From positions 131,826 to 195,825 of the forward strand of contig CALRDV010000002.1 of NCBI GenBank assembly GCA_943355005.1: 64,000 bases of DNA, written 5' to 3'. Source of the stretch: Patescibacteria group bacterium. GTDB taxonomy: Bacteria; Patescibacteriota; Microgenomatia; UBA1400; MFAQ01. How positions within the stretch are numbered: position 1 is the stretch's first letter; every line of letters begins with the position of its first letter. Both the position numbers and the translations under genes were made by a program. Below the pieces are notes generated by a model, which saw only the letters and a program-made list of their open reading frames with translations, had not been told where the DNA came from and searched no databases. Of the stretch, positions 10,213 to 60,557 are shown piece after piece.

Positions 10213-10217
10213 CACGG

Positions 10218-10592: not shown

Positions 10593-10593
10593 C

Positions 10594-10637: not shown

Positions 10638-10639
10638 TA

Positions 10640-10734: not shown

Positions 10735-10750
10735 GATTTTTTTATTGCCA

Positions 10751-10854
10751 TGTGGGATTCGAACGAGTCGGAAGCAGTTTTGTAACAAACCTGCTGAGAC
10801 AGGTCCTGAGACACAGCAGGTGACCGAAGGCGAATCCTTCCCCCACCGCCTCCG
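10751..10854 (+). repeat. tRNA-derived structured element, copy B (104 nt)
   Basis: It is collinear with copy A at ~85% identity. The hairpin stems show compensatory changes (GCAG-T-TTTG-TAA-CAAA-C-CTGC). The duplicated heptamer is TGAGACA in both repeats, a concerted G-to-A change relative to copy A. The 3' end, CCCACCGCCTCCGC, is identical. Confidence 0.6.
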
Positions 10855-10915
10855 CAATAGAAAATTCTCGCGACACGTCCTTGCCTATTCTTTTTTTATT
10901 TGAGAAGATAAGTTA

Positions 10916-15585: not shown

Positions 15586-15694
15586 CACTCACCACCCAAC
15601 CACTGTCATTCCCGACCTGAGTGGGCCGCTGGTACCCGAAGGGGTAAATCCATAAAAGTTGACCTCTACGCTCATTCATGATATTATAAGACAT

Positions 15695-18343: not shown

Positions 18344-19024
18344 TTATTCCTGATTATTTTGATCATCATGCTCTTCAATTAATTGTGAAATTACCGCCAC
18401 CACTTTGTCAGGGTAAGCTATAGACTCAAAAGTAAAAGCCGAAGATTCATCTCTCGCGTTCGGAACATTCTGTTTTGAGGCAGTTTCTACAATCACATCA
18501 CCGTAATTAAAGAAACTGGCAAGCATCCCTCTTTGAGAATAATTAACATCTTCAATTTTGTTCAGTTGACATACGTTGACATTTTTACTCAGTAGCCCCA
18601 CAAAATCAACATCTATTATTCTCTCATTTGTCACTATGTAAACATTGTAAAACCACATTAAAAAATTCTGCAGTCCGTAAAAAGCCAGAACCATATACCA
18701 AAGCATTGTCATACCAATCAGAGCATTTCCGTCCAACATTTTAATAAAAGGAAATTCTTTCCAAAACATCGGTATAAATAATGAAAAAGAAACTACTGTT
18801 ATCCACCCCAGATTCCTAATTATATGTTTCCTACCCAAAATTACGATTTTTTCATCTTCTTGTTGAGATTCAAACTTTGACCATTCAGGAATCGCCACCA
18901 AAGATCCCCACTGGCTACGAGGACATGATCCTAAAATCTTTTCCACATCATCAACCACATTCTCTGATTTCTTGGCTTTAAAAATCTCCGGCATACCTAA
19001 TTGTACCAAACACCACGTCGTCAT
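18344..19024 (-). CDS. YdbT/YdbS-like bacterial PH (bPH_2) domain membrane protein
   Basis: A two-TM hairpin (RNLGWITVVSFSLFIPMFW ... MLWYMVLAFYGL) followed by a domain containing IVTNERIIDVDF and ending GDVIVETAS, as in bPH_2. Confidence 0.55.
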   Translation of the reverse strand: MTTWCLVQLGMPEIFKAKKSENVVDDVEKILGSCPRSQWGSLVAIPEWSKFESQQEDEKIVILGRKHIIRNLGWITVVSFSLFIPMFWKEFPFIKMLDGNALIGMTMLWYMVLAFYGLQNFLMWFYNVYIVTNERIIDVDFVGLLSKNVNVCQLNKIEDVNYSQRGMLASFFNYGDVIVETASKQNVPNARDESSAFTFESIAYPDKVVAVISQLIEEHDDQNNQE

Positions 19025-19320
19025 TGCGAGACTCGACTTTAGGTCGGCCGTGGCAATCCCACACCACTGTCATTCCCGACCCGCTTCGCCATAGCTTCAG
19101 CGAGGCGAGCCTGAGTGGGCCGCTGGTACCCGAAGGGGGAAATCCCCCTCCACTCGTCATTGCGAGGAGTGAAACGACGTGGCAATCCCACACCACTGTC
19201 ATTCCCGACCTGATCGGGAATCTATATAGATAAATACCAATTTTTAACACCATGACTACTAGCACTTAGAGTTACGAGTGAGTACGGTTTTTGGCGGGCT
19301 TCGAAACGCGATAAAAAAAT
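19017..19320. repeat. Intergenic cluster of dispersed palindromic repeat elements (composite of at least four repeat types)
   Basis: Two copies of cgtcattgcgag-[hairpin]-gtggcaatccc, two copies of (cac)tgtcattcccgacc(tgatcgggaatc), one copy of gagtgggccgctggtacccgaagggggaaatcc, and one copy of agttacgagtgagtacggtttttggcgggcttcgaaac. The same units recur at more than 15 other places in the window. Confidence 0.8.
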
Positions 19321-19323: not shown

Positions 19324-21078
19324 CTATTTTTTCTCAATATTAAACAATCCACTCTTCAGTGATATCTTCCCCGGCGCCCTCAAAGTAAATACTTTGTAAT
19401 ACTCTTGTCCAGAAACCTGGAAAGATCCTCTATTGGTTTGGAAAACAACATTAGCCGTCTGTCCATTATCTCCATAAGTGATACTTAGACTACTAACACT
19501 TGTAATCGCCCCGCCTTGACTATTTGCCTCATTCTTCATCTGTTCCATACTCCAAGGATCACCAGATTTATTAAAACAACCTACATAATCAATAGGCAAA
19601 ATGTGTTCTACCCCACTACCACTCCGATACACAATAATCGCGTTTAAGATATCCGACATCTCCGATTCATTTAGCCAAGGATGAGATCTCCCGCAGCTTT
19701 CCTTGTTTTCATTTCTATACCAAGCCTTATAAAACCACGGACTACCGGCAGTTTTTTCATAAGCTTGCGACGTCCACCCACTTCTCCCTGTCGGCGTATC
19801 CCAAAGCGAAGGAGTCGTATATCCCGCATAGTTATCTGTATAAGACTCTTGATACCCGCCTGATGTTGAAGCATACCAAGATTTAAATGGTTTTCCGTTG
19901 TTCATCATTACCCAGCCTCGAGTTGCATTTACAGCTTCTTCCCACTTCCCCCCCTTATTACTATTTTTATACACCTGGCATGCTTGAGTCGTACAGATTG
20001 CTCCTCCTCTGCCTTCATCTGTCCAAGCAAGAACGTAAGACCTCGCCGCTACGGCTTGTGCCTTCAGAGCTTCCATTCCTCCGTTATCCCCCCAACCACC
20101 GGGCATCTCATAAATTCTCTTGACATATGTTTCTATATCCATTCGTCCATACCCTTGGACACTTATTTGTTTCCCAGCATCATAATCTTTCTTGATAGAG
20201 ATACTTCCTCCGTAATAAGCATGAAGAATATCATCCGCGTTTTGTCCGGCCTTAGCTCTGCCATAAGCTCCATACTGACTCATTCCCTTAAAGTGAGGTG
20301 CCCCAAAAGAAAACGAGGCAAATGCAGGGGAAAATCCAGGGTTGTAATCCGGTCTGGAAGCAGGATCGTCTGCTAGAGGCACATCACCTACTGTTGTTTG
20401 AAAATTTCCTTGTTTCTCAGCCAGTAGTGATTGCTGCTGAGCCGACAAAGCTGCGATTTTCCCGGACAGATCTTTTTGGTATGCTTTCGCTTTGGCCACT
20501 TCTCCAAAGAAGAAGCTGTTCTGCTTATCCAGCTCTGTCTGAAGCTTAGCCAATTGTTCTTTCTGAGTCTCCAAGTTCTTTTTATCTATCTCAAGTTGGC
20601 CTATCTCAGTTACCAAATTTACTATTACAGCCTTATCCCTATCACTACTTTCTTGTCTATAGTTCAGCTCCAATCTGGCTTCACCCATGCTTGTTTTAGA
20701 TAACAGGCTCGCCCATAAAGGCTGTGACCTAAGCCGGATATACATTTCTCTTATCTTTGCAGACAAGACGACATATTGCGTCGAAACCTTCTCACCTCGA
20801 TCTTTTATACCCATTTCTGTTGCCTTAAGTTTCGTAACCGCTAGATTTATCTGTGATTGAATCGATTTAATCCTGGCATTTAGCTTCGTAATTTCCGCTT
20901 CGAGTGGCACCGTAGCATTCTTACTCGCCTGCAAAGAACTATTTAATTCTCCTATTTGAGCTCCCAAACAAGTAATTAGTTCATCCCCGCTTTTGCCATC
21001 GCAGCTAGTATCTGCCTTTACTAGTCCGGCAAAAACACTGAGCAAAACCACCATGATTAATAAATATCTCCACTTCAT
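19324..21078 (-). CDS. SpoIID/LytB domain protein with an N-terminal signal peptide and long coiled-coil region
   Basis: The C-terminal domain has the SpoIID/LytB signature (GMSQYGAYGRAKAGQNADDILHAYYGG, ALKAQAVAARSY). The N-terminal ~250 aa is coiled-coil. Confidence 0.7.
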   Translation of the reverse strand: MKWRYLLIMVVLLSVFAGLVKADTSCDGKSGDELITCLGAQIGELNSSLQASKNATVPLEAEITKLNARIKSIQSQINLAVTKLKATEMGIKDRGEKVSTQYVVLSAKIREMYIRLRSQPLWASLLSKTSMGEARLELNYRQESSDRDKAVIVNLVTEIGQLEIDKKNLETQKEQLAKLQTELDKQNSFFFGEVAKAKAYQKDLSGKIAALSAQQQSLLAEKQGNFQTTVGDVPLADDPASRPDYNPGFSPAFASFSFGAPHFKGMSQYGAYGRAKAGQNADDILHAYYGGSISIKKDYDAGKQISVQGYGRMDIETYVKRIYEMPGGWGDNGGMEALKAQAVAARSYVLAWTDEGRGGAICTTQACQVYKNSNKGGKWEEAVNATRGWVMMNNGKPFKSWYASTSGGYQESYTDNYAGYTTPSLWDTPTGRSGWTSQAYEKTAGSPWFYKAWYRNENKESCGRSHPWLNESEMSDILNAIIVYRSGSGVEHILPIDYVGCFNKSGDPWSMEQMKNEANSQGGAITSVSSLSITYGDNGQTANVVFQTNRGSFQVSGQEYYKVFTLRAPGKISLKSGLFNIEKK

Positions 21079-22899: not shown

Positions 22900-22990
22900 A
22901 GCTGTACATAGGAGCCGAAGGGAATCCCGCTAATGCGGGACGAGATAGTTACGAGTGAGTACGGTTTTTGGCGGTCTTCGAACCAACAAG
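22900..22990. repeat. Dispersed repeat copy (agttacgagtgagtacggtttttggcggtcttcgaacc type plus flanking unit)
   Basis: Matches 19265-19315 at ~90% identity. Located between the uppS and polyprenyl synthetase genes. Confidence 0.6.
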
Positions 22991-24113: not shown

Positions 24114-24166
24114 AAATTAATAAGGATTACGTCATCCTCGACCTGATCGAGGATCCACAAATACAT

Positions 24167-24487
24167 ATGATTATTCGACCAGCCCTGGCAGCCTTAGAAC
24201 CTCTAGAAGGACTTTATGCCCCGGGAAAAGCCATGGGAGGTAGTGGGGCTACTCTATCCACTCTACTAAATCCGCTAATTTATAATTTCCTCATCATCTC
24301 CGGAATTCTTGCTTTCATTGTCATTATTTTCGCCGGTTTTAGCTACATCACCGCTTCAGGGGACAAAGGAAAAATTGAGATGTCCCAGAACATGCTAAAC
24401 TATGGCATACTAGGTTTAATTGTTGTTGTTTTGGCCTTTTTAATTACTCGAGTTATTGGAGCCGTCTTTGGCTTTAAATTCTTTTAA
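24167..24487 (+). CDS. VirB2/TrbC-like pilin paralog 1
   Basis: 106 aa: TM1 (LIYNFLIISGILAFIVIIFAGF), loop TASGDKGKIEMSQN, TM2 (ILGLIVVVLAFLITRVIG). Confidence 0.55.
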   Translation: MIIRPALAALEPLEGLYAPGKAMGGSGATLSTLLNPLIYNFLIISGILAFIVIIFAGFSYITASGDKGKIEMSQNMLNYGILGLIVVVLAFLITRVIGAVFGFKFF

Positions 24488-24493
24488 ATACTT

Positions 24494-24862
24494 ATGATAA
24501 ATAATTTAAAATATTTTACATCTACCGTCTACGCAGCAGCTGGTGATGTCGTAGGAATTATAGATCTACCGGTAGGTGTTCCAAAAGAAGTTGTTCAAAC
24601 TACAGATATTATATCTGCCCTCATCCGCTTTTTAATCGTTATTGCCGGACTTTTCTCTCTTTTTCAATTTATAACCGGAGGTATCGCTTTTATTTCCTCT
24701 GGTGGTGACAAAGGTAAAATCACAGAAGCCCAAAACAAAATTCAAATGAGTATTATTGGACTAGTCATTATTACTGCTAGTTTTATAATCATCGCTCTCG
24801 TCAGTAGAATACTTTTCGGATCTTTTACCGCCATACTCGCACCAAAATTACAATCAATCTAA
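24494..24862 (+). CDS. VirB2/TrbC-like pilin paralog 2
   Basis: Leader MINNLKYFTSTVYAAAGD, TM1, loop SSGGDKGKITEAQ, TM2. Confidence 0.55.
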   Translation: MINNLKYFTSTVYAAAGDVVGIIDLPVGVPKEVVQTTDIISALIRFLIVIAGLFSLFQFITGGIAFISSGGDKGKITEAQNKIQMSIIGLVIITASFIIIALVSRILFGSFTAILAPKLQSI

Positions 24863-24863
24863 A

Positions 24864-25232
24864 ATGTTTAAAATTATATCTCCCATCTATGCATCTAACC
24901 CTATTGATTTAGGAAAGGAAATAGAGGGGTCCGGAGTATACCAAACAGGCATAAGTTCTACTGTTCAAACCAGTTTTGGAGGTTTTATTTCTTCTGTTAT
25001 TACTACACTAACTGTTGTTGGTAGTCTAGCCTTCGTTGTTTACTTTACTGTCGCGGGACTAAAATGGATTAGCGCCGGCGGCGACAAGGGCAAAGTAGCC
25101 GAAGCTCAAACCCAAATGACCCAATCCGCCATCGGCCTAATCGCCATTGTAGCCTCTTACTTTATCATCGGCATTGTCGGTGCCGTCCTTGGTTTAGATA
25201 TTCTCAATCCATTTAAAGCGCTTAAATTTTAA
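24864..25232 (+). CDS. VirB2/TrbC-like pilin paralog 3
   Basis: Leader MFKIISPIYASNP, TM1, loop SAGGDKGKVAEAQ, TM2. It starts 2 nt after paralog 2. Confidence 0.55.
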   Translation: MFKIISPIYASNPIDLGKEIEGSGVYQTGISSTVQTSFGGFISSVITTLTVVGSLAFVVYFTVAGLKWISAGGDKGKVAEAQTQMTQSAIGLIAIVASYFIIGIVGAVLGLDILNPFKALKF

Positions 25233-25236
25233 TAAC

Positions 25237-25590
25237 ATGATCATACAAATAGCCCAACCTGCTCTAGCTGCCGATGAAATAGTAAACAATGCCATCTCTA
25301 GCAAAGTCACCAGTTTAGGTGCGGGTGGAGGTCTAGCTTTTTACATTGCCACTCTCTGGCAAACCGTAATCACCGTAGGAGGCATCGCCTTCATTATTTA
25401 TCTCGTTTGGGGTGGCATAGAGTATCTCACTTCAGGGGGTGACAAGGGTCGGATTGACGATGCTCAGAAAAAAATTACCAGTTCTGTAATCGGTATTGTG
25501 ATCCTTGTTGCTTCCTACTCCATCACCTATTTCATCCAACAGGTCTTCAAGATTAACATTCTCAAACCTGTATTTCCCAACGCACTATGA
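25237..25590 (+). CDS. VirB2/TrbC-like pilin paralog 4
   Basis: Leader MIIQIAQPALAADE, TM1, loop TSGGDKGRIDDAQ, TM2. Confidence 0.55.
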   Translation: MIIQIAQPALAADEIVNNAISSKVTSLGAGGGLAFYIATLWQTVITVGGIAFIIYLVWGGIEYLTSGGDKGRIDDAQKKITSSVIGIVILVASYSITYFIQQVFKINILKPVFPNAL

Positions 25591-25949
25591 TCACAAGTTT
25601 TATTCCCAAAGTATTCGCCGCCGCCGATATAGAACTCCCTATCGGCGACACTGTTACCAAAAATAACTTTTTTGGCTATACATGCATCGGCCATCTCGTT
25701 AGCAACTTAGTTAGCGCCGCTTTTATTATTTCAGGTATCGCTTTCTTTGTTATCTTGGTCATGGGTGGAGTCCAGTGGCTGGTCTCAGGTGGCGACAAGG
25801 GTAAAGTCGAAAGTGCTCAGAAAAGTATTTCTGCAGCTCTCATCGGTTTAGCTATAGTTGCCAGTAGTTACGCTGTTTATATCTTAGTTCTTGAGTTCTT
25901 CGGTATCAATCTCGACGCGCTCTGTACAGCTAACCCACTAGGAAATTGA
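25587..25949 (+). CDS. VirB2/TrbC-like pilin paralog 5
   Basis: Leader MITSFIPKVFAAADI, TM1, loop VSGGDKGKVESAQ, TM2. It overlaps paralog 4 by 4 nt. Confidence 0.55.
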   Translation: MITSFIPKVFAAADIELPIGDTVTKNNFFGYTCIGHLVSNLVSAAFIISGIAFFVILVMGGVQWLVSGGDKGKVESAQKSISAALIGLAIVASSYAVYILVLEFFGINLDALCTANPLGN

Positions 25950-26011
25950 CAAGACTAAAATCATATATAATAGTAAGTATTACGAATATCAATTATTAAA
26001 AAATAAAAAAT

Positions 26012-26353
26012 ATGTCCTTTATTTCCCAAGTCTACGCAGCTACCGGCCAACTAGGAGTTCCCCAACCAACGGGTATGAAAATCACCGATATCGGTGTTCT
26101 TATTAGTCGTGTCATTTCCGTCGCCTTTATTATTGCCGGCATCCTTACCTTCGCTTTCTTAGTCATGGGTGGTATCGAGTGGCTAACTTCAGGTGGAGAC
26201 AAAGGTAAAACCGAAAGCGCCAGAAACCGTATCACTGCCGCTATCGTCGGTCTTGCCATCGTCGCCGCATCATGGGCTCTAATGAAACTCATTGCCTACT
26301 TCTTCGGTGTCGACGTCTTCGAGGGAAACATCAATATCCCTAAACCTTACTAA
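26012..26353 (+). CDS. VirB2/TrbC-like pilin paralog 6
   Basis: Leader MSFISQVYAATGQ, TM1, loop TSGGDKGKTESAR, TM2. Confidence 0.55.
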   Translation: MSFISQVYAATGQLGVPQPTGMKITDIGVLISRVISVAFIIAGILTFAFLVMGGIEWLTSGGDKGKTESARNRITAAIVGLAIVAASWALMKLIAYFFGVDVFEGNINIPKPY

Positions 26354-26372
26354 GCATTTAGGATTAGAAAAT

Positions 26373-26402
26373 AAAAAATCCCGGTTACCCGGGTTTTTTT
26401 AT
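26373..26402 (+). terminator. Rho-independent terminator
   Basis: AAAAAATCCCGGTTACCCGGGTTTTTTTAT: a GC-rich 7-bp stem followed by T7. Confidence 0.7.
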
Positions 26403-26418
26403 AATATATAATCAAATC

Positions 26419-26784
26419 ATGTCATTCCAATTAGTTACACAAGCTTATGCTGCGAGCTGGGCTTCAATTGATCCAGCATGTGTCGGCTCACAAATTGGCT
26501 CTGTAGATGCCAGTGATGTCGTCACCATTGGTGGTATTAAATGTTTAATTGCTAACCTTCTTTCTCCCATTCCTGGACTCATCGCTCTAGTGGCTGTCGG
26601 TGTACTCATCATGGCAGGTATTCGTCTTATGTCTGCCGGAGCCGAGCCCAAAGCCATCGCCAGCGCTTGGAACATGTTCACTTACGCCATCATCGGTCTC
26701 ATTCTTCTTGCAGTAGTTTGGCTAGTTCTTGTAATAATCGAGAACTTCACCGGAGCTCAGGTAACCAAATTCGGAATCCCTTAA
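26419..26784 (+). CDS. VirB2/TrbC-like pilin paralog 7 (divergent)
   Basis: Leader MSFQLVTQAYAASWA, TM1 (LLSPIPGLIALVAVGVLIMAGI), loop SAGAEPKAIASAW, TM2. Its own promoter-like ATAATATATAAT box follows the upstream terminator. Confidence 0.5.
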   Translation: MSFQLVTQAYAASWASIDPACVGSQIGSVDASDVVTIGGIKCLIANLLSPIPGLIALVAVGVLIMAGIRLMSAGAEPKAIASAWNMFTYAIIGLILLAVVWLVLVIIENFTGAQVTKFGIP

Positions 26785-38080: not shown

Positions 38081-39136
38081 ATGGCTATTCAACAGCATCC
38101 ACTACCACAGGACATTAGCTCCTATCGCTTCCGCCTAATTGGCGATATGACTATCAAGCAGTTTGCCTCTCTTGGCATCTGTATTGTTTTAGCCATTATT
38201 GCGTACAGTATGCCCCTCCCTTTCTTTTTTAAATACCCTTTAGCCTTTATGTTTATCGTACTAGGCGTAGGTATGGCTTTTGTCCCCGTTCAAGGACGTT
38301 CTCTGGATGTTTGGATTCTTGCTTTTATCCGTTCCATTTATTCTCCGACTCAATATACATGGAAACGTTCTGAAGAAACTGTTTCAAATGAAATGTCTAT
38401 GAAGAGTAATGGAGTGGGTACTCAAGCAGTTACAAACGCCAGAATCGAACTCACCCAAGCTCCCGCTTCAGTCCCCAATACTCCATCTGTCTCCATCACC
38501 CCTCCTGCATCAGAGCCAAAAACAGAAGAGAGACTCGAAATAACTCCTCCACCATCCGTCATTGCGAACCCGCCTTCAGAGGGTGTGGCAATCCAGGCTA
38601 CAAATCAAACCGAAGTCCCAGTTCCTGAATTAGGAAAAATTATAACTTCCTTAGCCCCAGTAATACCTACCGAGCCGGAAAAACCCACCCAACCAATAAC
38701 ACTTACTGTCATTCCGGGCTTGACCCGGAATCCATCTGGTACATCAGACGCCCAATCGACACCATCCGTCATTGCGAGAGACCTACCCGCTGTGGAAGGA
38801 GCACGGCAATCTAGTTTACCAGCCACCCCATCAACTAACCCTCCCCAGCAAACCCAGCTCCCCATCCCCTACACCCCCACTACCCCAAACACTCTCGTTG
38901 GACTTACGTTGTCTCCGGAAGGTAAAATTTTGGACGGGGTCATGGTAGAAATTCAGAGAAACGGTCTAACTTCCAGAGCCACCAAAAGTAACAAACTTGG
39001 CCAATTTATGTTCGCCAGACCTTTGGAAAATGGCTTGTATCAAATCCTCGCCGAAAAAGATTCTTTTACCTTTTCACCATACTCTTTAGATCTTACCGGC
39101 ACTATTATCCGACCTCTTAAAATCCAAGCACAATAA
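38081..39136 (+). CDS. PrgI/VirB3-like membrane protein with C-terminal carboxypeptidase-regulatory-like domain. It contains in-frame palindromic repeat insertions.
   Basis: The N-terminus (YRFRLIGDMTIKQFASLGICIVLAIIAYSMP ... AFMFIVLGVGMAFVP) has the two-TM PrgI-like pattern. The C-terminus (LTLSPEGKILDGVMVEIQRNGLTSRATKSNKLGQFMFARPLENGLYQILAEKDSFTF) resembles a CarboxypepD_reg beta-sandwich. The central Pro/Thr linker includes VIPGLTRNPSGTS and PSVIARDLP, which are encoded by copies of the dispersed repeats. Confidence 0.45.
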   Translation: MAIQQHPLPQDISSYRFRLIGDMTIKQFASLGICIVLAIIAYSMPLPFFFKYPLAFMFIVLGVGMAFVPVQGRSLDVWILAFIRSIYSPTQYTWKRSEETVSNEMSMKSNGVGTQAVTNARIELTQAPASVPNTPSVSITPPASEPKTEERLEITPPPSVIANPPSEGVAIQATNQTEVPVPELGKIITSLAPVIPTEPEKPTQPITLTVIPGLTRNPSGTSDAQSTPSVIARDLPAVEGARQSSLPATPSTNPPQQTQLPIPYTPTTPNTLVGLTLSPEGKILDGVMVEIQRNGLTSRATKSNKLGQFMFARPLENGLYQILAEKDSFTFSPYSLDLTGTIIRPLKIQAQ

Positions 39137-39818: not shown

Positions 39819-41693
39819 ATGGCTCTGAATCTATTTTCTCTTGGCAAAAAAGCCGCTCCGACAACAGCTGTTGAATCAACGGTACCAGCCAACACGCCTC
39901 CTCATAACTCCAACACTTCGGGGTTAAAGTCCACCGCTTCTAGCCAGTCAGTTCAAGATATTATTGCTCCATCGGCTGTCGAAGTAGATTTTTCTTTTAT
40001 CAAAATAGATGATAACTACGTCCGAACTCTTTTTGTCACTGGCTACCCGCGTTACGTTTCGGCTAATTGGCTCTCCCCCCTGATCAATTTCAACCACTCC
40101 TTGGATATTTCCATGTTTGTTTACCCCTCCGACTCCAAAGATACTTTAGATAGTCTCAGGCGACGCATTGCCGAAATGGAAGCAGAAATAAATACTGATA
40201 TCGAACGAGGTCGTATCCCCCGCGCTGCCACCGAAGCCGGATTAGAAGACGCCAAGGTTCTCCAATCTCAACTTGTTAAAGGAGCAGAAAGATTTTTTCA
40301 ATTCTCTTTGTATATCAGCATCTCCGGAGACTCAGTCAAAGAGCTAGACACTGTTACTGCTCAAGTTCAATCCATGTTGGCTTCCCTCCTTATCATCAGC
40401 AAGGTCGCCTCTTTATCTATGGAGGATGCTTTCAAAACCACTTTGCCGTATTGCAAAGATAAATTAATGTTAACTCGGAACATGGATACCACAGCCCTCT
40501 CTACTACTTTTCCATTTACATCTTCTGAACTCTCTGATAATCAAGGTATTCTTTACGGCGTCAACGCTCATAATGATTCTCTCGTAATTTTTGATCGCTT
40601 CTCTCTTGAGAATGCCAATATGCTCATACTCGCCACTTCCGGTGCCGGTAAGTCTTATGCAGTAAAGCTCGAAATTCTTCGTTCTCTTATGTTCGACTGC
40701 CAAGTTATTATTCTAGACCCGGAAAACGAATACGAAATGGTCACCAAATCTGTCGGTGGCAACTATCTCTCTTTCTCCACCGGTGCTACTCACAAAATTA
40801 ACCCCTTCCAAATCGCCAGACCACAAGATAGCAGTGAAGATGAGATGGGTTACAAATATCTTTTCCTTATGTCGCTTCTAAAAATCATGATTGGTGTCAT
40901 GGATCCTATTGAAGAAGCCACTATGAACCGCGCTTTAGTTCTCACTTATCGTCAGAAGGGCATTTCGGAAGATCCAACTACTCACATTCTGGAGGCACCC
41001 AGAATGGAAGATCTTTATCGTGCTCTTATCGGCATGGAAGAAAGTGTTTCCAAGACTTTAGCTGCCAGACTAGAAAGATATGTCATGGGTGGTGTAAAAG
41101 GTATTTTTGATCAGCAAAGCAATATCGACATCAATGCTCCCGTCACCGTTTTTACTTTAAGGGACACTGCCGACGAAATTCGCCCTATTATCATGTTTAT
41201 GATTCTAGACTTTGTTTGGAACCAAGTCCGCAAAGACTTACGCAAAAGAATTCTCGTTGTCGATGAGGCTTGGTACCTCATGAGATACGAAGATTCCGCC
41301 AAAATTCTTCAGGGTTTTGTCAAACGCGCACGTAAATATTACTTTGGTGTATCTATCATTTCTCAGAACGTCGACGACTTTCTTGGTTCAGCTTACGGCA
41401 AAGCTATTATTACCAACTCTGCCCTCAAACTCCTCCTTAAACAATCCTCAGCTGCCATCAATCAGATCTCTGAAGTCTTCTATCTCTCTCAAGGAGAGAA
41501 ACAACTTCTTCTCTCTGCTGGCCAAGGTGAAGGTATTTTCTTCGCCGGTATGAATCACGTAGCTATCAAAATTATTTCCTCTGCCGACGAACATGCACTT
41601 GCTACCAGTAAACCGGCCGAAATTCTCGAAGCCAGAAAGAAAGAAAAAGAAGCTCGAGAAGCTGAAATCGCAGCCGATAAAGCCAACACCTAA
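39819..41693 (+). CDS. VirB4/TrbE/CagE-family T4SS ATPase
   Basis: Walker A NMLILATSGAGKSYAV, Walker B RILVVDEAWYLM, and an N-terminal YVRTLFVTGYPRYVSANWL segment typical of the VirB4 family. 624 aa. Confidence 0.75.
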   Translation: MALNLFSLGKKAAPTTAVESTVPANTPPHNSNTSGLKSTASSQSVQDIIAPSAVEVDFSFIKIDDNYVRTLFVTGYPRYVSANWLSPLINFNHSLDISMFVYPSDSKDTLDSLRRRIAEMEAEINTDIERGRIPRAATEAGLEDAKVLQSQLVKGAERFFQFSLYISISGDSVKELDTVTAQVQSMLASLLIISKVASLSMEDAFKTTLPYCKDKLMLTRNMDTTALSTTFPFTSSELSDNQGILYGVNAHNDSLVIFDRFSLENANMLILATSGAGKSYAVKLEILRSLMFDCQVIILDPENEYEMVTKSVGGNYLSFSTGATHKINPFQIARPQDSSEDEMGYKYLFLMSLLKIMIGVMDPIEEATMNRALVLTYRQKGISEDPTTHILEAPRMEDLYRALIGMEESVSKTLAARLERYVMGGVKGIFDQQSNIDINAPVTVFTLRDTADEIRPIIMFMILDFVWNQVRKDLRKRILVVDEAWYLMRYEDSAKILQGFVKRARKYYFGVSIISQNVDDFLGSAYGKAIITNSALKLLLKQSSAAINQISEVFYLSQGEKQLLLSAGQGEGIFFAGMNHVAIKIISSADEHALATSKPAEILEARKKEKEAREAEIAADKANT

Positions 41694-45767: not shown

Positions 45768-46880
45768 TTAAGTCTGTGTCCTCACCGGCATTACTACTTG
45801 TACCCAGCCATCATCATCTTCACGCTTAAACACACTTGGCTTCAATTCACCTTCCGTCTCCCAAACCACTCTCTCAGAATTATTCACCCCCAAGTAATCT
45901 AGCAAATACCTGGCGTTAAAAGCTACAGTTAATCCGTCGCCTTCAACTTCAGTTTCCAACTCTGTAGAATTACTACCTAGTTGACTACTTTCTGCCTTCA
46001 CAATTAGTTTTTCTTCATCAATAGACATTTTTACAATATTTGCATTATCCCGCGCAAACAAATTGGCCCTCTTGACCGCTTCCAATAGCTCTTCTCGGTT
46101 AAACACCGCCTTAGTTGAATAAGTATTCGGCATGATTTGTTGATAGGGTGGAAACTCCCCTGCAATCAGTCGAGATGAAACTTCCAAATCGGCAATAGTA
46201 AAAATTACTTGTTGGTTCTCTTTATCAAATTCAATTCCAAAACTATCCTCCCCTGTCTCGGCTAATACTTTTGAGATTTCTTGTAGAGATCTGGCCGGCA
46301 GAATAAATCTGGTATTTTTTTCTATCGTCGTTTTAACCACACTTAGTTTGTCTACACTAAGTCTGTATCCATCCGTCGCGGCCAAAATAGTTTTATTTTC
46401 ATCCAGTTCCCAAAGTACCCCAGTTAACACCGGTCTAGTATCATCTCTGGCAGCCGAAATACAAACTCTATCCATCTTCTGGCGAAATTCTCCACTCTTC
46501 AAAGTAATCTGTACTTTCTTGGCTCTAGGAATACTTGGATAGTCTTCCACACCTTGTCCTACCACTTCGGCATTGATTCCCTTAGCTGACACAGTCAATG
46601 TGTTTTTATCCGAAGAAAGAGTTACATTCCCGACAGGTAAACTGGAAACCAGTTCTCCAAAAAGTTTGGCTGGTACCACCATCTCACCCTCTTCGTCGAT
46701 CTTGGCCGGCAACTTCACCCAGAAACTTACTTCCAAGTCGGTCGAGACCAAGTTTACTTCATTTTTAGTTACTTTCAAAAGTACTCCTGAAAGAATCGGC
46801 AACTGAGGCCTTGCCCCAATTCCCCTATTTACGATTCCCAAATATTTCTTTAAATCTGTTGCTTGGACTGTTATCTTCAT
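45768..46880 (-). CDS. dnaN: DNA polymerase III beta subunit (sliding clamp)
   Basis: 370 aa: MKITVQATDLKKYLGIVNRGIGARPQLPILSGVLLKV, a three-domain clamp pattern. Confidence 0.9.
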   Translation of the reverse strand: MKITVQATDLKKYLGIVNRGIGARPQLPILSGVLLKVTKNEVNLVSTDLEVSFWVKLPAKIDEEGEMVVPAKLFGELVSSLPVGNVTLSSDKNTLTVSAKGINAEVVGQGVEDYPSIPRAKKVQITLKSGEFRQKMDRVCISAARDDTRPVLTGVLWELDENKTILAATDGYRLSVDKLSVVKTTIEKNTRFILPARSLQEISKVLAETGEDSFGIEFDKENQQVIFTIADLEVSSRLIAGEFPPYQQIMPNTYSTKAVFNREELLEAVKRANLFARDNANIVKMSIDEEKLIVKAESSQLGSNSTELETEVEGDGLTVAFNARYLLDYLGVNNSERVVWETEGELKPSVFKREDDDGWVQVVMPVRTQT

Positions 46881-46983
46881 TCTTTAAATATTGTATATGT
46901 ATTCTTTTAATTAAATGCTTCTTGTTTGCTTACTAATATATTATTTATCTTAAATAAATATAGTAGTTATTAGTAATAGGTGA

Positions 46984-47229
46984 CGTGGATAAGTGGAGAC
47001 TAGCTTCAGCACGTGCCTGTTTTTCGTGTTACTAAGTTTTTATCGACTCATACATCCATCCTTTTGTCTCTTTGTCTCAGAATCTACTCACAAAAATAAA
47101 CTAACAACTCTATATTCTTGTGGATTCTTTTCTGGATAACTTGGCGACTTGTCCACCTACTTTTAAAATTTTAAAGACTTCTGCACACTTTGAATAGATA
47201 TCCACAGCACGTGGATAACTTGTGGATAT
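46984..47229. promoter_or_regulatory. oriC-like DnaA-box cluster between dnaA and dnaN, with adjacent AT-rich unwinding region (~46881-46980)
   Basis: Matches to TTATCCACA or its complement: CGTGGATAA (~46984), TGTGGATTC (~47119), CTGGATAAC (~47132), TTGTCCACC (~47149), ATATCCACA (~47198), CGTGGATAA (~47210), TGTGGATAT (~47221). There is another box, CTATCCACA, at ~48672 upstream of dnaA. Confidence 0.65.
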
Positions 47230-48681
47230 TTACGTGTATAACGCTTGTTTTAGTGCATTAACTTTTCGCCTGATATCCACGTTTTCTTCTATCTGCACTT
47301 TCATTTTTTCGACCGCGTGCATTACTGTTGTATGATCTCTCCCGCCCATCAGTTCGGCAACTTCGGTCAAATTTAGGTCGAGGATATCTCTCAAGATATA
47401 CATCGTAATGTGTCTAGCTACCACCAAGTCCGCTTTTCTACTGGTACCCAAAAGATCTTTATTTCGGAAATCAAAGTATTTGGCGACGGTAGAAATTACT
47501 TTGAGTGGTCTGACTTTAATATCCTTCACTGTGCTTGATGGTAGTCCTAGGTTCTTCTGTACCATTTCTTTGGTCAGCACTACCCCGTCCAAGTTTGCTG
47601 TTGCCGCCAACTGTCCAAAAGTTCCCTCCAGTTCTCTGGCATTCGTAGGGAAGCTGGTAGCCATAAGCTCAAACGCGCCATCGTCAACATCCACTTTAAG
47701 ATCAAGTGCTCTCTGTTTGAGTATTGCGAGTCTCATTTCATAATCAGGTAAGCCAATATCCACCATCATTCCTCCGAGGAATCTACTACGGAGCCTTGCT
47801 TCCAATCCCACAATCTCTTGGGGCTTGCGATCGCTCGTCATAATTATTTGTACTTGCCTATTCGTCAATTCATTGAAAGTGTGGAAGAACTCTTCTTGTG
47901 TTGAATCTTTTCCTCCAAAAAACTGTACATCGTCGACGAGAAGAGCTCCCACTTGGCGATACTTCTTCTTAAAAGCGTCAACAAGTTTAGATTTAAAAGA
48001 ACCGACCAGGTCGTTGGTAAACTGTTCGCTGGTAATGCACATAATTTTTCCAACTCCTTTTTTGACCAGTTCGTGCCCTACTGCATGCATCAAGTGAGTC
48101 TTCCCTACTCCAACCCCTCCATATATAAATAGAGGATTATGTCTCGTCCCGGGGAAATCTACCACTGCCTTGCCGGCAGCGAAAGCCAACCTATTCGAAC
48201 TTCCGACCATATAAGATTCAAAGTGATATCTGGGATTAAGATTTGTGTTGGTAGACTTGCTATCTTCTTGTGGTGCGAAGAGACCGATGTTTGTCTCATT
48301 AGGTTTTGCGCTTTCAAAATCCTTTTTCGGGTATTTTGTCTCTTTGTTTTGCTCTATTACAAGCAGTGCAATGTCACATCTTTTTCCTGAAATTTTCTCA
48401 GCAGACTGCTTTATGATGCTGTAATACTTGGTTTCAACTGTGTGACTCAGAAATGCCGACGGAGTTACTAGTTCAAGGAGTAGTCTTTCTTCATCAATGG
48501 AAGTAATAGAACGTAAATAACAAGGCTTGATAAAGCCCGCAAAACTTGCCGGAGTCATAGATACACCAAGCTCTCCGCAAATACTATGCCATAATTTCTC
48601 ACTGTCCATACCGTCATTCTCAACACTTATCCACATTTTTACAACCCCCAATTTACCCAAAAAGACTACTACTATCCACAT
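47230..48681 (-). CDS. dnaA: Chromosomal replication initiator DnaA. The true start is probably the internal ATG at ~48609.
   Basis: AAA+ Walker A GGVGVGKTHLMHAVG, Walker B LLVDDVQF, and the C-terminal DNA-binding domain (ADLVVARHITMYILRDILDLNLTEVAELMGGRDHTTVMHAVEKM). The first 24 codons of the track ORF overlap a DnaA box. Confidence 0.9.
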   Translation of the reverse strand: MWIVVVFLGKLGVVKMWISVENDGMDSEKLWHSICGELGVSMTPASFAGFIKPCYLRSITSIDEERLLLELVTPSAFLSHTVETKYYSIIKQSAEKISGKRCDIALLVIEQNKETKYPKKDFESAKPNETNIGLFAPQEDSKSTNTNLNPRYHFESYMVGSSNRLAFAAGKAVVDFPGTRHNPLFIYGGVGVGKTHLMHAVGHELVKKGVGKIMCITSEQFTNDLVGSFKSKLVDAFKKKYRQVGALLVDDVQFFGGKDSTQEEFFHTFNELTNRQVQIIMTSDRKPQEIVGLEARLRSRFLGGMMVDIGLPDYEMRLAILKQRALDLKVDVDDGAFELMATSFPTNARELEGTFGQLAATANLDGVVLTKEMVQKNLGLPSSTVKDIKVRPLKVISTVAKYFDFRNKDLLGTSRKADLVVARHITMYILRDILDLNLTEVAELMGGRDHTTVMHAVEKMKVQIEENVDIRRKVNALKQALYT

Positions 48682-48755
48682 CAGTTCTCTTCCGTTGCTT
48701 TTCTAGGGTATAATACTAAACAGTCACGTGATTCTCACGCAACAAACAAAACCCT

Positions 48756-48893
48756 ATGCCAAAAAGAGTATACCAACCAAAAAAAGTCAAACGTATTAGA
48801 AAGCACGGTTTTCGTATCAAGATGGCCTCAGCTGGTGGTCGAAACGTAATCAAACGTCGCCGAGCCAAAGGTAGAACCAAGTTAGCCCTCTAA
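48756..48893 (+). CDS. rpmH: 50S ribosomal protein L34
   Basis: Hand translation gives [45 protein letters not shown], which matches the L34 consensus (...THGFRARM...GR.V...RR.KGR..L). The stop appears to overlap the rnpA ATG (TAATG). It is too short for the supplied ORF track. Coordinates are +/-1. Confidence 0.7.
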
Positions 48894-49240
48894 TGCCTCT
48901 TCCGGCCATAAACCGGCTTCCCCTTCGATTTGAAAGAGATCGCCTTACACGTGAGGGTCGTTCATTCCACACCCGTCACTTTACCCTCGTCACCGCACCC
49001 TTTGACTCGCCAGAGCTGAAAGCGACGGCGAGCCGCTTCTCCATCCTCCTCTCGAAAAAAACCGCCCGCCTAGCCGTCGACCGCAATCTCATTAAACGCC
49101 GTACCTCCGCCATCCTGGCCCAAATACTCCTCTCCTTCCCTCCGGCCGATTACCTAATCATCCCCAAACGCTCCGTTCTGGACACCCCCCTCCCCGAACT
49201 TCTCTCCGACCTCTCCACTGCCATCCCCAAACTCAGATAA
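48893..49240 (+). CDS. rnpA: Ribonuclease P protein component
   Basis: 115 aa, basic, with LLSKKTARLAVDRNLIKRR (the RnpA RNR-like motif). It is in the conserved rpmH-rnpA order. The gene is conspicuously GC-rich (~57%) relative to its surroundings. Confidence 0.8.
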   Translation: MPLPAINRLPLRFERDRLTREGRSFHTRHFTLVTAPFDSPELKATASRFSILLSKKTARLAVDRNLIKRRTSAILAQILLSFPPADYLIIPKRSVLDTPLPELLSDLSTAIPKLR

Positions 49241-49242: not shown

Positions 49243-49277
49243 TTGTCATTCCCGACCCGATCGGGAATCCATTCTCT
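49243..49277. repeat. Dispersed palindromic repeat copy (gtcattcccgacccgatcgggaatcc)
   Basis: Located immediately after the rnpA stop codon. Stem TTCCCGA/TCGGGAA. Confidence 0.7.
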
Positions 49278-54242: not shown

Positions 54243-54282
54243 ATTCGTCTTGTCATTCCGGGCTTGACCCGGAATCCATCCC
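54243..54282. repeat. Dispersed palindromic repeat copy (gtcattccgggcttgacccggaatcc variant)
   Basis: Immediately after the rnhA stop. The stem has compensatory substitutions (TTCCGGG/CCCGGAA) relative to the TTCCCGA/TCGGGAA variant. Confidence 0.7.
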
Positions 54283-57946: not shown

Positions 57947-57995
57947 AACCGTCATTGCGAGGCTCGACTTTAGGTCGGCCGTGGCAATCCAGGGT
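57947..57995. repeat. Dispersed palindromic repeat copy (cgtcattgcgaggctcgactttaggtcggccgtggcaatcc)
   Basis: Near-identical to the copy at 19017-19062. It is followed by a bidirectional terminator hairpin (AACAGCCACT-TGA-GTGGCTGTTTTTTG) at ~58008-58035. Confidence 0.7.
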
Positions 57996-58073: not shown

Positions 58074-60221
58074 TTATTCTTTCGGCCAATTTGCGGATAT
58101 TAACAGCCCTTCCTGGGGGAACACTTCCTTCCACGCCGACTCTGTCACAAAAGGGACAAAAGGGTGAAGCATTATTAAGAAAGACTTGTAGCCGTTTTTA
58201 AGAAGTTCAAGTGATACTTTCCCAGATTTGCAATTCTCGATAGATTCATCACAGAACCAGTGCCAAAACTCATTATAAACAGACTCCGCTGCCAGACCTA
58301 CCTTGTTAGCTTCCAATAATCTAGTTAACTCCTTTTGAACCTCTTGTAGTTTAGTTTTAAAATTCTCATTGCCTTCTCCTGTAAATTCGTCATTGCGAGG
58401 AGCGGAGTGACGTGGCAATCTCACTCCATCCACAATTTCCTGACCTTCACTCTTGGAATCGCCTTCTCTAGGGGTTTCCATCTCTGTAATAAATCTTCCG
58501 GCGTTCCAGATTTTGTTTCCAAAATTTCTCATTCCTCGAACTTTATTTTCCCCTGTATTACTATCTTGCCCCGGAGTTGTGCTCATCACCAATGCCATTC
58601 GAAGCGAGTCGGCACCATATTTATCTGTAAGTTCAAGTGGGTTGATTACATTACCAATACTCTTGCTCATCTTTCTGCCTTGCTCGTCTCTCACCAATCC
58701 GTGCAAATAAACGCATTTGAAAGGAGACTTGCCTGTCATATATATTCCTAACAACATCATCCTCATTACCCAGAAGGGGAGAATATCATAAGCTGTCTCC
58801 ATGACGTCAGTGGGGTAGTATACGTCGAAGTCTCCTTGCTTACTTGTCTTGAGTGTCACCACTGGCCACTGTCCGGAAGAGAACCACGTGTCAAAAGTAT
58901 CTGTTTCTTGAGTGTATCCTTTGCCCGGGCTCATTTCACTCACCACAAATTCTGTTTTAGTCTCATCTTTGTACCAAACCGGCATTCTAATTCCCCATAC
59001 GATTTGTCTGCTTACATTCCAATCTCTAAGATTGCTCAACCAATGTCTTAAGATTTTGTCGTGCCCGGATCCCATAACTACGGACTCTTCGGTATCTAGA
59101 GATTTCAGGGCATTTTCAGCCAAGGTCTTAACCTTTATAAAGAATTGTTTCATTGGCAAAGGTTCAATTGTTCGATGACAGCGATAACAAGTGCCCACAC
59201 TGTGCGTATATGGCTTTGTCTCTATTAGAGCGCTGCCTAAGTCGGTAACTATCTTTTCTCTGGCTTCACTTACATTCATACCTTCATAAAGCCCTGCATT
59301 GGCCGTCATTTTCCCTTTTGTTCCAATTACCTGGTGATTCAAAACAATCTCATCCATATTCCAACCTTGTCGCACAGCCACATCCCAATCGTTCTGGTCG
59401 TGTGTTGGTGTAATTTTTACGGCTCCGGTGCCGAACTCCATATCCACCATTGCATCTCCGACAATAGGGATTTCCCTGCCCACCAGTGGTAGTGTTACTT
59501 TCTCCCCAATTAAATTTTTGTATCTTGGGTCTTCCGGATTTACAGCCACAGCCACATCTCCAAGCATTGTTTCAGGCCTTGTGGTGGCTACCGAGAGCTT
59601 TCCGTAATTAATCTTGTATATCTTATCTTCTCTCTCCTCGTGGTCCACCTCAAGTTCGGAATATGCCGTTCCACACTTCGTACAGAAATTTACCAGCCTG
59701 ACTCCACGATAGATCAATCCATCTTCATGCAGTTTTATAAAAGTCTTGGTTACTTCCTTTACAATTTCCGGGTCGAGCGTAAATTTGTATCTACTCCAAT
59801 CTGCACTGGCTCCCAATTTCTTCACTTGGTCGATAGCAACTCCGGAATTTTCGTGTACATAATCCCAAATCATTTTGTAGAGAGTGTCTCTGTCAAAATC
59901 AAATCTACTTTTTCCTTGCTTGGCTAATTTTTTCTCAAACACAAACTGAGTTTCAATCCCTGCATGATCTGTACCCGGCAGCCAAAGAACTGCTTCACCC
60001 TTCATCCTATGAAAGCGTACCAAGATGTCCTCTATAGTTACGAACATTGCATGACCAACGTGTAAGGGGTCATTCGCGTTAGGAGGAGGCATAATTACAG
60101 TAAATGGTTTTTGACCCGTTTTTTTTACATCATCTCCCGACGGTGGGGTAAAAGCTCCACTCTTTTCCCACTCAGCATAAATCTCTGCTTCGGTTTCTTT
60201 GTGCTCGTAATTTTTATTCAT
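58074..60221 (-). CDS. valS: Valyl-tRNA synthetase (short form) with an in-frame palindromic repeat insertion near the C-terminus
   Basis: PPPNANDPLHVGHAMFVTIEDILVRFHRMKGEAVLWLPGTDHAGIETQ (HIGH region, ValRS-like), and KMSKSIGNVI. The residues GVRLPRHSAPRNDEF near the C-terminus are encoded by a copy of cgtcattgcgaggagcggagtgacgtggcaatc (~58385-58430). Confidence 0.8.
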   Translation of the reverse strand: MNKNYEHKETEAEIYAEWEKSGAFTPPSGDDVKKTGQKPFTVIMPPPNANDPLHVGHAMFVTIEDILVRFHRMKGEAVLWLPGTDHAGIETQFVFEKKLAKQGKSRFDFDRDTLYKMIWDYVHENSGVAIDQVKKLGASADWSRYKFTLDPEIVKEVTKTFIKLHEDGLIYRGVRLVNFCTKCGTAYSELEVDHEEREDKIYKINYGKLSVATTRPETMLGDVAVAVNPEDPRYKNLIGEKVTLPLVGREIPIVGDAMVDMEFGTGAVKITPTHDQNDWDVAVRQGWNMDEIVLNHQVIGTKGKMTANAGLYEGMNVSEAREKIVTDLGSALIETKPYTHSVGTCYRCHRTIEPLPMKQFFIKVKTLAENALKSLDTEESVVMGSGHDKILRHWLSNLRDWNVSRQIVWGIRMPVWYKDETKTEFVVSEMSPGKGYTQETDTFDTWFSSGQWPVVTLKTSKQGDFDVYYPTDVMETAYDILPFWVMRMMLLGIYMTGKSPFKCVYLHGLVRDEQGRKMSKSIGNVINPLELTDKYGADSLRMALVMSTTPGQDSNTGENKVRGMRNFGNKIWNAGRFITEMETPREGDSKSEGQEIVDGVRLPRHSAPRNDEFTGEGNENFKTKLQEVQKELTRLLEANKVGLAAESVYNEFWHWFCDESIENCKSGKVSLELLKNGYKSFLIMLHPFVPFVTESAWKEVFPQEGLLISANWPKE

Positions 60222-60228: not shown

Positions 60229-60310
60229 TCGTCATTCCCGACCTGATCGGGAATCTATATAGATCGTCATTGCGAGTTTCGGTATTCCGAACCGCGGCAA
60301 TCCAGGTTAA
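60229..60310. repeat. Two adjacent dispersed palindromic repeat copies upstream of valS
   Basis: gtcattcccgacctgatcgggaatc followed by cgtcattgcgagtttcggtattccgaaccgcggcaatcc. A third copy is at ~60415-60450, and a perfect 12-bp inverted repeat (CCCTCGTCAATC...GATTGACGAGGG) is at ~60322-60362. Confidence 0.7.
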
Positions 60311-60557
60311 TAATTTAAAAAACCCTCGTCAATCTCCATTATAAAGGGGATTGACGAGGGCCAATTAGGCGGTACCACCTCGCATTATACTTAATTCGTT
60401 TGGGTTCTACTTCCATTGTCATTCCCGACCTGATCGGGAATCCATAAATAGTTTCCTCCCTAGCTCAGAGGTGACTAATCTCTTCATCGCTCTCTTGCTA
60501 ATTCTATCACAATCGAATAAAATAACCCATAGAGTTTGAACAAAAGGAGATATTAAT

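Follow-up and report, generated by a model that had tools for sequence, protein, structure and literature searches.

CGTC-type hairpin repeats in the variable linker of a PrgI-family protein gene of a Patescibacteria bacterium

The window analysed here, 64 kb of DNA from a Microgenomates bacterium of the Candidate Phyla Radiation (CPR, or Patescibacteria), encodes on its plus strand a type IV secretion system (T4SS) protein of the PrgI family (VirB3-like), in the open reading frame (ORF) 38081–39136 (351 aa). Three segments of the Pro/Thr-rich linker of this protein are very probably real copies of the genome's CGTC-type hairpin repeats (repetitive extragenic palindromes, REPs), which entered the PrgI gene, are translated in frame and persist in a permissive linker. 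That part of this linker had been built from translated interspersed repeats was first proposed in an annotation made from the DNA letters alone, and the proposal is supported by the profile match that identifies the protein, by the secure repeat copies, by the length of the linker and by the presence of REPs in the longest linkers of orthologues.

Repeat segments in the PrgI linker

REP units occur 19 times in the window, always on the plus, C-rich strand, with genes on both strands. Each consists of a YGTC tag (19/19), a stem that opens with ATT (ATTCC... or ATTGC...) and closes with ...GGAAT or ...GCAAT, and a C(C/T)A tail; most copies end in CCA or CTA, and many carry a longer CCAGG.T..AAAT tail. 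In units of the R1 type the stem is 8 bp long and the loop 5 nt, and the stem changes that distinguish copies are compensatory; in those of the R2 type an outer stem of 5 bp encloses an internal loop and an inner hairpin that varies. The three repeat-derived strings and peptides that the first-pass annotation reported in the PrgI reading frame are all present at the positions it gave. Segment 1, of the R2 type (38556–38597, plus strand; tag CCGTC, 3' end AATCCA), has the DNA sequence CCGTCATTGCGA..GTGGCAATCCAGG and is read as SVIANPPSEGVAIQ; a CCAGG.T..AAAT-like tail, seen also at the copies at 14084, 57985, 60298 and 61237, may carry it to about 38608. Segment 2, of the R1 type (38706–38736, plus strand), comprises a TGTC tag (in the context CTGTC), an 8-bp stem ATTCCGGG/CCCGGAAT, the loop CTTGA and a CCA tail (3' end AATCCA), and is read as TVIPGLTRNP. 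Segment 3, again R2 (38766–38815, plus strand; tag CCGTC, 3' end AATCTA), has the DNA sequence CCGTCATTGCGAG..CACGGCAATCT and is read as SVIARDLPAVEGARQS; its inner hairpin is decayed, and its inner module GACCTACCCGC resembles GACCTGCCCGCAG of two related contigs (L002 and L003).

The membership of all three segments in the repeat family was assessed with covariance models of R1 and R2 that were built solely from copies outside the PrgI gene (alignments A3 and A2, respectively) and run over the window with filters off. The three segments are the top non-training matches in the window: segment 2 scores 46.5 bits with the R1 model (E = 5.2e-11), and segments 1 and 3 score 28.0 bits (E = 3.8e-7) and 23.7 bits (E = 1.2e-5) with the R2 model. 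In addition, segment 2 is identical over 30/30 nt to positions 54251–54280 and over 27/27 nt to positions 61216–61242 (blastn E = 2.8e-11), and segments 1 and 3 are two of the seven window matches to the pattern GTCATTGCGA-N10-40-GGCAATC, all on the plus strand, compared with 0.00 expected from 100 dinucleotide shuffles. The rival notion of chance similarity within low-complexity, C-rich sequence can point to the biased composition of the linker and to the merely marginal character of matches outside the three segments; it is refuted by the 30-nt exact identity, by the seven pattern matches against none expected and by the held-out E-values, and we regard its probability as negligible. Against the repeat consensus, then, the linker matches do not fall below random expectation, the outcome that the first-pass annotation had considered damaging to its proposal (held-out E-values, rounded, of 5e-11, 4e-7 and 1e-5).

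The three copies differ in their state of preservation. Segment 2 folds into a hairpin with 8 perfectly paired bp and a loop of 5 nt (-8.5 kcal/mol, z = -4.5). In segment 1 the outer ATTGC/GCAAT stem is retained and the stability is no better than that of shuffled sequences (z = -0.8), and in segment 3 both end motifs are retained around the decayed inner hairpin (z = +0.7). The perfect R1 copy looks recent and the two R2 copies, with their decayed inner hairpins, look older.

The assignment of the host protein rests on a match of residues 8–91 to the Pfam profile PF12666 (PrgI; E = 6.6e-8, 33.4 bits against a gathering cut-off of 27), and 451 homologues are found at E <= 1e-5, with lengths of 264–362 aa among the 120 listed. 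An alignment of 19 homologues (A1) divides the protein into three parts. The N-terminal PrgI membrane domain (aa 1–124, 38081–38452) is near-invariant, with AlphaFold helices at residues 18–21, 25–43, 48–67 and 74–87 and pLDDT values up to 91. The C-terminal β-rich domain (aa 260–351, 38858–39133) is also near-invariant; its β-strands are predicted by AlphaFold at low confidence, and it has a weak match to CarboxypepD_reg (E = 0.0036) that lies below the Pfam cut-off. The linker between them (aa 125–259, 135 aa, 38453–38857) is hypervariable and unalignable between orthologues. It is rich in proline (19%), threonine (13%) and serine (10%) and has no Pfam match, even at E <= 10; AlphaFold predicts no secondary structure in it, with a mean pLDDT below 50 in every 10-residue block.

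As the first-pass annotation had suggested, linker lengths were compared between orthologues: the 135 residues found here rank 77th among the 79 linkers measured and exceed the median of 76 by 59 residues. The core repeat segments contribute about 41 of the 135 residues, or about 50 if the shared tails are included. An upstream remnant candidate at 38475–38555, compared with the repeat array at 19060–19155, was rejected (shuffles reach the observed score in 158/500 cases), as was the shared 5' extension CCACCCAACCA as repeat sequence, which is marginal (17/300 shuffles reach it). Predicted tryptic peptides that span the repeats are NPSGTSDAQSTPSVIAR, DLPAVEGAR and PTQPITLTVIPGLTR.

It could be argued that the long ORF is an artefact of annotation or assembly, either because a short PrgI gene and an independent gene 3' of it are separated by intergenic REPs or because of a chimeric join at the repeats. 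Most REPs in the window are indeed intergenic (12/19), and the source contig comes from a short-read metagenome assembly. Nevertheless, the 405-nt linker is open in one frame, the fused arrangement of N-domain, linker and C-domain is common to 19/19 aligned homologues, and an identical protein is recorded on two contigs; moreover, the repeats, at 26–50 nt, would be shorter than the assembler's k-mer, to judge from the contig name (k141). An artefact is, consequently, very unlikely.

Repeat copies in orthologues and in other genes

The five longest PrgI linkers, including the one in the window, all contain REP-type segments, at non-homologous positions. At the DNA level, a REP with the sequence TGTCATCCCGGACCCGATCCGGGAT is found in the linker of P0090 (L245, 3416–3446; E = 1.8e-8) and one with the sequence TGTCATTCCGGCCAGCGAGCCGGAATC in that of P0015 (L246, 10701–10732; E = 2.5e-6), and by inspection the DNA of the P0009 linker (L002) contains a 95-nt composite unit at 10403–10497. 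For P0118 the evidence comes from peptides only, namely the REP-type strings VIPAKAGIHPD and VVIAR...DVAIS.

Seven of the 19 units in the window (37%) are intragenic, and the genes that contain them, besides PrgI, are those for TsaD, for a synthetase resembling valyl-tRNA synthetase (ValRS) and for ZnuA. The TsaD gene (60850–61947, minus strand; PF00814, E = 2e-78) has two REPs in antisense orientation. The R1 copy (61214–61244, plus strand), which is identical to segment 2 over 27/27 nt, is read as WIPGQARNDV and lies in a stretch of about 39 aa that is missing from Thermotoga maritima TsaD and from the orthologues P0124, P0130, P0132 and P0138; the alignment to PDB 6nak breaks at query residues 231–269. 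The second copy (61154–61203, plus strand; R2 model 22.1 bits, E = 3.9e-5), read as VRFLDSRHGVPVARNDE, is present in some orthologues only (P0122 and P0123). Among orthologues that are 66–86% identical, the site that follows ...ARMVE is without a REP in P0124, P0130, P0132, P0138, P0155 and P0169, holds one REP (e.g., WIPDQVGND) in P0121 and P0125–P0129, and holds two in the window, P0122 and P0123. At the nucleotide level the difference is a clean indel of about 39 nt, and a second variable site follows ...ANWI. TsaD is the cleanest evidence for repeat gain and loss. The empty site of P0124 (L247; compare window 61140–61260) reads AAT CTT GAC GAG, which is CTCGTC on the repeat strand; the presence of the CGTC tag at an empty site hints that the tag may belong to the target rather than to the mobile unit.

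The first-pass annotation had taken the peptides IPGLTRNP of PrgI and IPGQARND of TsaD for one unit read in one frame. The 27-nt unit and the codon register are indeed the same, with coinciding codon boundaries (GTC|ATT and AAT|GAC, respectively), but TsaD reads the opposite strand, that is, the reverse complement, and IPGLTRN and IPGQARND look alike because the stem is palindromic.

The other two intragenic copies are likewise antisense to their genes. In the ValRS-like class I tRNA synthetase (58074–60221, minus strand) an R2 copy at 58387–58424 (plus strand), read as RLPRHSAPRNDE, corresponds to about 19 extra residues between the catalytic and anticodon-binding domains relative to Thermus thermophilus ValRS (PDB, 1gax). 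This 715-aa synthetase is closest to ValRS (1gax, E = 4e-150), not to leucyl-tRNA synthetase (LeuRS), and is shorter than the T. thermophilus enzyme (715 vs 862 aa), the alignment stopping at residue 707 of 1gax. In the ZnuA gene (13247–14170, minus strand) a composite REP at 14034–14092 (plus strand), read as GFTPSGTSGPQHSVPRNDS, follows the hydrophobic N-terminus and precedes the ZnuA domain, for which the Pfam match begins at aa 52. A further intragenic case was seen in a related genome: on L004, a 1.09-Mb Collierbacteria contig, an R2-type REP (20293–20347; 34.8 bits, E = 2.8e-9) lies within rnpA, the product of which has 129 aa, against 115 aa in the window.

The choice of reading frame is regular, with the V-I frame used by 8/8 sense copies in PrgI linkers and the N-D frame by 4/4 antisense copies in the window. 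Stop codons account for some of this pattern: a TGA invariably closes the middle antisense frame, and in the second sense frame the R1 loop contains one. A fixed codon register as a strict rule was downgraded, since stops exclude some frames and the TsaD of P0126 reads RFPIRSGMT in the other open antisense frame. The same data bear on the proposition that the repeat peptides (SVIA..VAIQ, VIPGLTRNP) are themselves selected linker motifs, such as docking or processing sites, forming a module that is reused elsewhere. Whereas the V-I-(A/P) frame of all eight sense copies agrees with that idea, identical DNA is found in intergenic spacers and, reversed, inside unrelated enzymes; the peptides are missing from most orthologues and differently placed where present; the stops in the other frames explain the frame bias at least in part; and the TsaD orthologue with RFPIRSGMT uses another open frame. 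We consider selection for the peptides as such to be hardly credible.

The remaining units in the window, all on the plus strand, are intergenic. A composite REP at 15603–15654 lies upstream of the transfer-messenger RNA (tmRNA) gene, and a mosaic array at 19018–19226 consists of four head-to-tail REPs (19018–19062, 19067–19147, 19154–19191 and 19196–19226) with the spacers CACACCACT / CCTCCACTC. The listed ATG start of ORF 18344–19024 (minus strand) is formed by a CAT (19018–19024) that belongs to a repeat tag, the GTCATT at 19020; the true start of this ORF may be further downstream. An R1 copy at 24129–24159 (46.5 bits), with the compensatory stem ATCCTCGA/TCGAGGAT, is located upstream of an array of T4SS pilin genes; this array (24167–26784, plus strand) comprises seven tandem small ORFs of 106–122 aa, the first of which matches T4SS pilin PF18895. 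Other copies closely follow genes: an R1 copy at 49243–49273 a few nucleotides past the rnpA stop codon, an R1 copy at 54250–54280, identical to segment 2, about 19 nt past the RNase H gene, and an R2 copy at 57949–57993 about 7 nt past the L25 gene. Between the ValRS-like gene and TsaD there is a group of REPs at 60229–60446, consisting of R1 (60229–60259), R2 (60264–60306) and R1 (60416–60446) units. Head-to-tail arrangement is the rule in all arrays, and the genes beside repeat clusters have, by their Pfam matches, housekeeping or T4SS functions.

At the gathering threshold Rfam recognizes only tRNAs and the tmRNA in the window, and the repeats correspond to no curated RNA family; full-text literature matches to the repeat sequences were mostly primer coincidences. 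The R2 end-motif pattern was found at at least 120 loci in viral and at least 120 loci in genome collections, the latter from Alpha-, Beta- and Gammaproteobacteria, Bacteroidota, Oscillospiraceae, Chloroflexi, Planctomycetota and several Patescibacteria, including a Collierbacteria genome. By our own arithmetic some 130 chance matches are expected over the whole genome collection, so the locus count alone proves nothing; we take loci elsewhere to be real repeats because some of them are multi-copy and because hairpin cores, such as GAGCG(C/A)AGCGACG(T/C), recur.

The PrgI gene is followed on its 3' side by genes for a TraC-like protein, a VirB4/TraG-P-loop ATPase, an M23 peptidase (cell-wall hydrolase) and a 340-aa protein, and then by dnaN and dnaA; the block is syntenic in four related contigs (L002–L004 and L246). 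The exact protein is encoded on a 255-kb metagenome contig, and the source names of its homologues put the lineage within the Microgenomates, near Collierbacteria. The VirB4-like ATPase of the window (39819–41693, 624 aa) is free of the intein with a LAGLIDADG domain that is present in its counterparts of about 1,220 aa in L003 (11713–15375) and L246 (11733–15371). Several features of the window are separate from the REPs. At 10488–10870 (plus strand), beside a tRNA-Ser cluster, there are three tandem structured units of about 110–120 nt, each closed by a GUGGGA...UCCCAC helix and carrying a conserved hairpin CCGGAAC..UCGUAACGA..GGUGAGGC, with a related hairpin at 8012–8052; the middle unit folds with z = -4.3, and the sole Rfam match is a weak RtT-like one (E = 0.11). 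ARAGORN predicts, near other tRNA-Ser genes, a tRNA-Ser with the unusual anticodon ACT (10127–10213, minus strand). Finally, a 36-nt repeat unrelated to the CGTC REPs (family D15) occurs at 19270–19305 and 22947–22982, the copies being 97% identical and each located just 3' of a minus-strand gene.

Strand placement and a possible mode of spread

The confinement of all units to one strand coincides with a compositional asymmetry. The GC skew of the plus strand is -0.19 overall, -0.115 in plus-strand genes and -0.278 in minus-strand genes; since it is negative in genes of both strands, a component independent of gene orientation is present. Four related loci (L002, L004, L245 and L246) have negative skew and REPs on the plus strand, and two others, L166 (Collierbacteria) and L248, have positive skew on the plus strand and REPs on the minus strand; other Patescibacteria loci show a mixed relation of strand and skew. 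Tagged strand and C-rich strand coincide at 97 of 147 loci drawn from many phyla (66%, p = 1e-4), a modest effect that could be confounded by gene orientation.

The leading strand is usually the G-rich one, and by this convention the tagged C-rich strand would be the template of the leading strand. The genes dnaN (minus), dnaA (minus) and rnpA (plus) are adjacent at 45768–49240, an arrangement typical of origins; the skew is about -0.2 on both sides with no change of sign, and by this measure the replication origin is not at dnaA.

Single-strandedness may be central to how such repeats move. In Neisseria, the NTS repeat is cut by the GIY-YIG nuclease SsnA on single-stranded DNA and on one strand only (Chenal et al. 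2025, PMC11893778), and the positions key to SsnA cleavage and binding are the GTC 5' of the palindrome and the C directly 3' of it (PMC11893778). If a nuclease acting on the window's repeats behaves like SsnA, the tagged strand would be the cleavable strand and not the one exposed as lagging-strand template. The repeats could spread by a hairpin-specific step on single-stranded DNA that is catalysed in trans, the likely agent being an Ssn-type GIY-YIG nuclease or a different enzyme with its gene in another part of the genome. All copies would then be held on one replication strand, whether by this step or by selection against self-cleavage as the DNA replicates, and selection would filter insertions to open frames and permissive sites. 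In the PrgI protein, copies would persist where they fall, in sense orientation and in a stop-free frame (V-I-A/P...), within a tether that joins the PrgI/VirB3-like membrane domain to the C-terminal β-rich domain and for which no structure is predicted, and where extra residues would be cheap; the main effect on the protein would be a tether longer by about 41–50 residues.

A more ambitious version of this scenario, which we put forward as speculative and rather doubtful, is that in Collierbacteria-like Microgenomates the CGTC REPs constitute a system with replication-strand polarity, powered by single-stranded DNA, confined to the C-rich strand and inserting at or near existing CGTC sites, that routinely varies the length of tethers and loops in surface machinery (the PrgI linker) as well as in essential enzymes (TsaD and ValRS); the strand rule would possibly serve to avoid self-cleavage by an Ssn-type enzyme on the exposed lagging-strand template.

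The same enzymology suggests a different reading, in which the intragenic copies are kept for a role at the DNA level, as directional Ssn-type nuclease or recombination sites that bracket parts of the T4SS gene; cutting of incoming or replicating single-stranded DNA at these sites would modulate recombination of the linker and C-domain, as has been proposed for Neisseria NTS near genes for surface proteins. Both elements critical for SsnA, the GTC before the palindrome and the C directly behind, are kept in 3/3 PrgI copies, and in every catalogued unit; the strict strand polarity suits a strand-specific enzyme; a further copy (24129–24159) closely precedes the array of T4SS pilin genes; Neisseria NTS cluster near membrane-protein genes (PMC11893778); and the projected density of about 300 repeats per Mb (our own arithmetic) would be within the range that the Ssn study ties to host-associated bacteria (PMC11893778). 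On the other hand, the window has no ssnA-like gene, hairpin stability is lost in 2/3 copies, repeat positions differ between orthologues, the idea offers no experimental handle, and just 2% of Neisseria NTS are intragenic (PMC11893778). We judge a DNA-level role to be improbable, and retain the view that the three segments are REP copies tolerated in a permissive linker.

Comparison with known repeat systems

CGTC-tagged REPs have been defined by a CGTC tag (variants TGTC and CCTC), a stem of 8–9 bp starting with A-T/T-A pairs, a loop of 4–5 nt and a CCA tail (Di Nocera, De Gregorio & Rocco 2013, PMC3733652). They have been reported from five phyla, mostly from Alphaproteobacteria and mostly as head-to-head dimers; intragenic copies are known, some of them in tRNA synthetase genes, and no dedicated transposase is known (PMC3733652). 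The units in the window resemble them in the CGTC/TGTC tag, the AT-opening stem, the CCA tail and, in R1, the 8-bp stem with its 5-nt loop (as in ATTCCGGG / CTTGA / CCCGGAAT of segment 2). They also resemble them in the many dispersed copies, often no more than 20 bp from the 3' end of a gene, and in the copies within genes, a tRNA synthetase gene included. Neisseria dRS3 (CGTC-1) and, from Rickettsia, RPE-6 and RPE-4 are counted among the members of the superfamily (PMC3733652), and the connection of the window repeats to RPE-4 and RPE-6 is made via this published statement on CGTC type. Unlike in the published cases, the host belongs to the Microgenomates and the intragenic share is high (7/19).

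The R1 units are also similar to Neisseria NTS (CGTCATTCCCGCGMAVGCGGGAATCYRG) in their flanks and outer stem, the NTS consensus being CGTCATTCC...GGAATCYRG and that of R1 CGTCATTCC...GGAATCC(A/R)G; in both systems the motif is directional, and for the window's genome, as for NTS, hundreds of copies are expected. The intragenic shares differ widely, 37% in the window compared with the 2% that has been determined for N. meningitidis (PMC11893778). Ssn-related motifs (SRM) are spread widely across phyla, and ssnA (cd10448) is typically flanked by them (PMC11893778).

Several observations weigh against the interpretation of the linker segments as mobile CGTC-type REPs that were inserted and translated. 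The R2 units, segments 1 and 3 included, have a 5-bp outer stem instead of the 8–9-bp stem and 4–5-nt loop of CGTC REPs, and the window units are arranged head-to-tail on one strand, not as head-to-head dimers. The published SRM search string, HGTCWYN(0-2)YYVSBRHN(0-5)WNVSBRGN(0-2)RNCYNB, has no match in the window, where shuffled sequence gives 0.14; a check by hand indicates that the R1 hairpin misfits its fixed stem positions, and because of this result we do not claim SRM membership as defined. As for a mobilising enzyme, neither a motif scan nor a phmmer search with the GIY-YIG protein of L234 (best E = 0.19) finds an Ssn-type gene in the 64-kb window, and the 29 window ORFs scanned have no Pfam match to a transposase family. 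With respect to the linker itself, held-out models and shuffle tests reveal no further significant repeat remnants in its remaining part, so the repeats explain part of it only; its translation is deduced from the conservation of the ORF; and the data contain no close empty-site allele of it that would fix the exact insertion boundaries or any target duplication. The AlphaFold model gives weak support for linker disorder, as it is poor overall, with low pLDDT also over the C-terminal domain.

With these copies the CGTC REP type (dRS3/NTS, RPE-4/6) is placed in CPR bacteria, and very small genomes are seen to tolerate such REPs within essential genes and not just between genes. The PrgI protein itself is likely to be affected only modestly, through a longer tether. 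For annotation, strings such as VIPGLTRNP, SVIAR..., ...PRNDE and WIPDQVGND in CPR proteins become readable as repeat-derived inserts rather than as family features. The one-strand orientation, together with the empty and filled alleles of TsaD, provides a concrete system for how CGTC REPs move, and the strand and allele data permit testing whether Ssn-type nucleases shape repeat orientation.

The GTAG REPs, with their BIME (REPIN) arrangements and RAYT (TnpA-REP) enzymes, and the IS200/IS605 elements share with the window repeats the use of short hairpins recognised as single-stranded DNA and the formation of mosaic arrays. The tag here is CGTC instead of GTAG, and no Y1 transposase was seen in the window. 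For IS200/IS605 elements, insertion and excision both take place at the lagging-strand template (PMC6006769), and a study cited in the same source is described there as linking replication to the orientation of transposable elements; by contrast, the C-rich tagged strand would, by the usual skew convention, be the leading-strand and not the lagging-strand template.

In the fate of the inserted sequence, the closest parallel is with the Rickettsia palindromic elements (RPEs). According to the account of the work of Ogata et al. (2000, 2002) given in PMC10969869, these are in-frame insertions in unrelated, often essential genes that are translated and compatible with protein function, RPE-1 being about 100–150 bp long and each copy encoding a conserved peptide. 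In-frame REP and RPE insertions and CGTC REPs are already known (PMC3733652, PMC10969869), and the searchable literature yielded no relevant description of REPs in Patescibacteria/CPR. What is new in the present case is limited to the host group, the three copies in one T4SS linker, the intragenic share of 7/19 against 2% for NTS and the head-to-tail arrangement on a single strand. Like the Rickettsia elements, the window repeats are in-frame, non-disrupting insertions in unrelated genes (PrgI, TsaD, ValRS-like and ZnuA); unlike them, they are only 26–80 nt long, belong to another lineage and occur three times in one linker.

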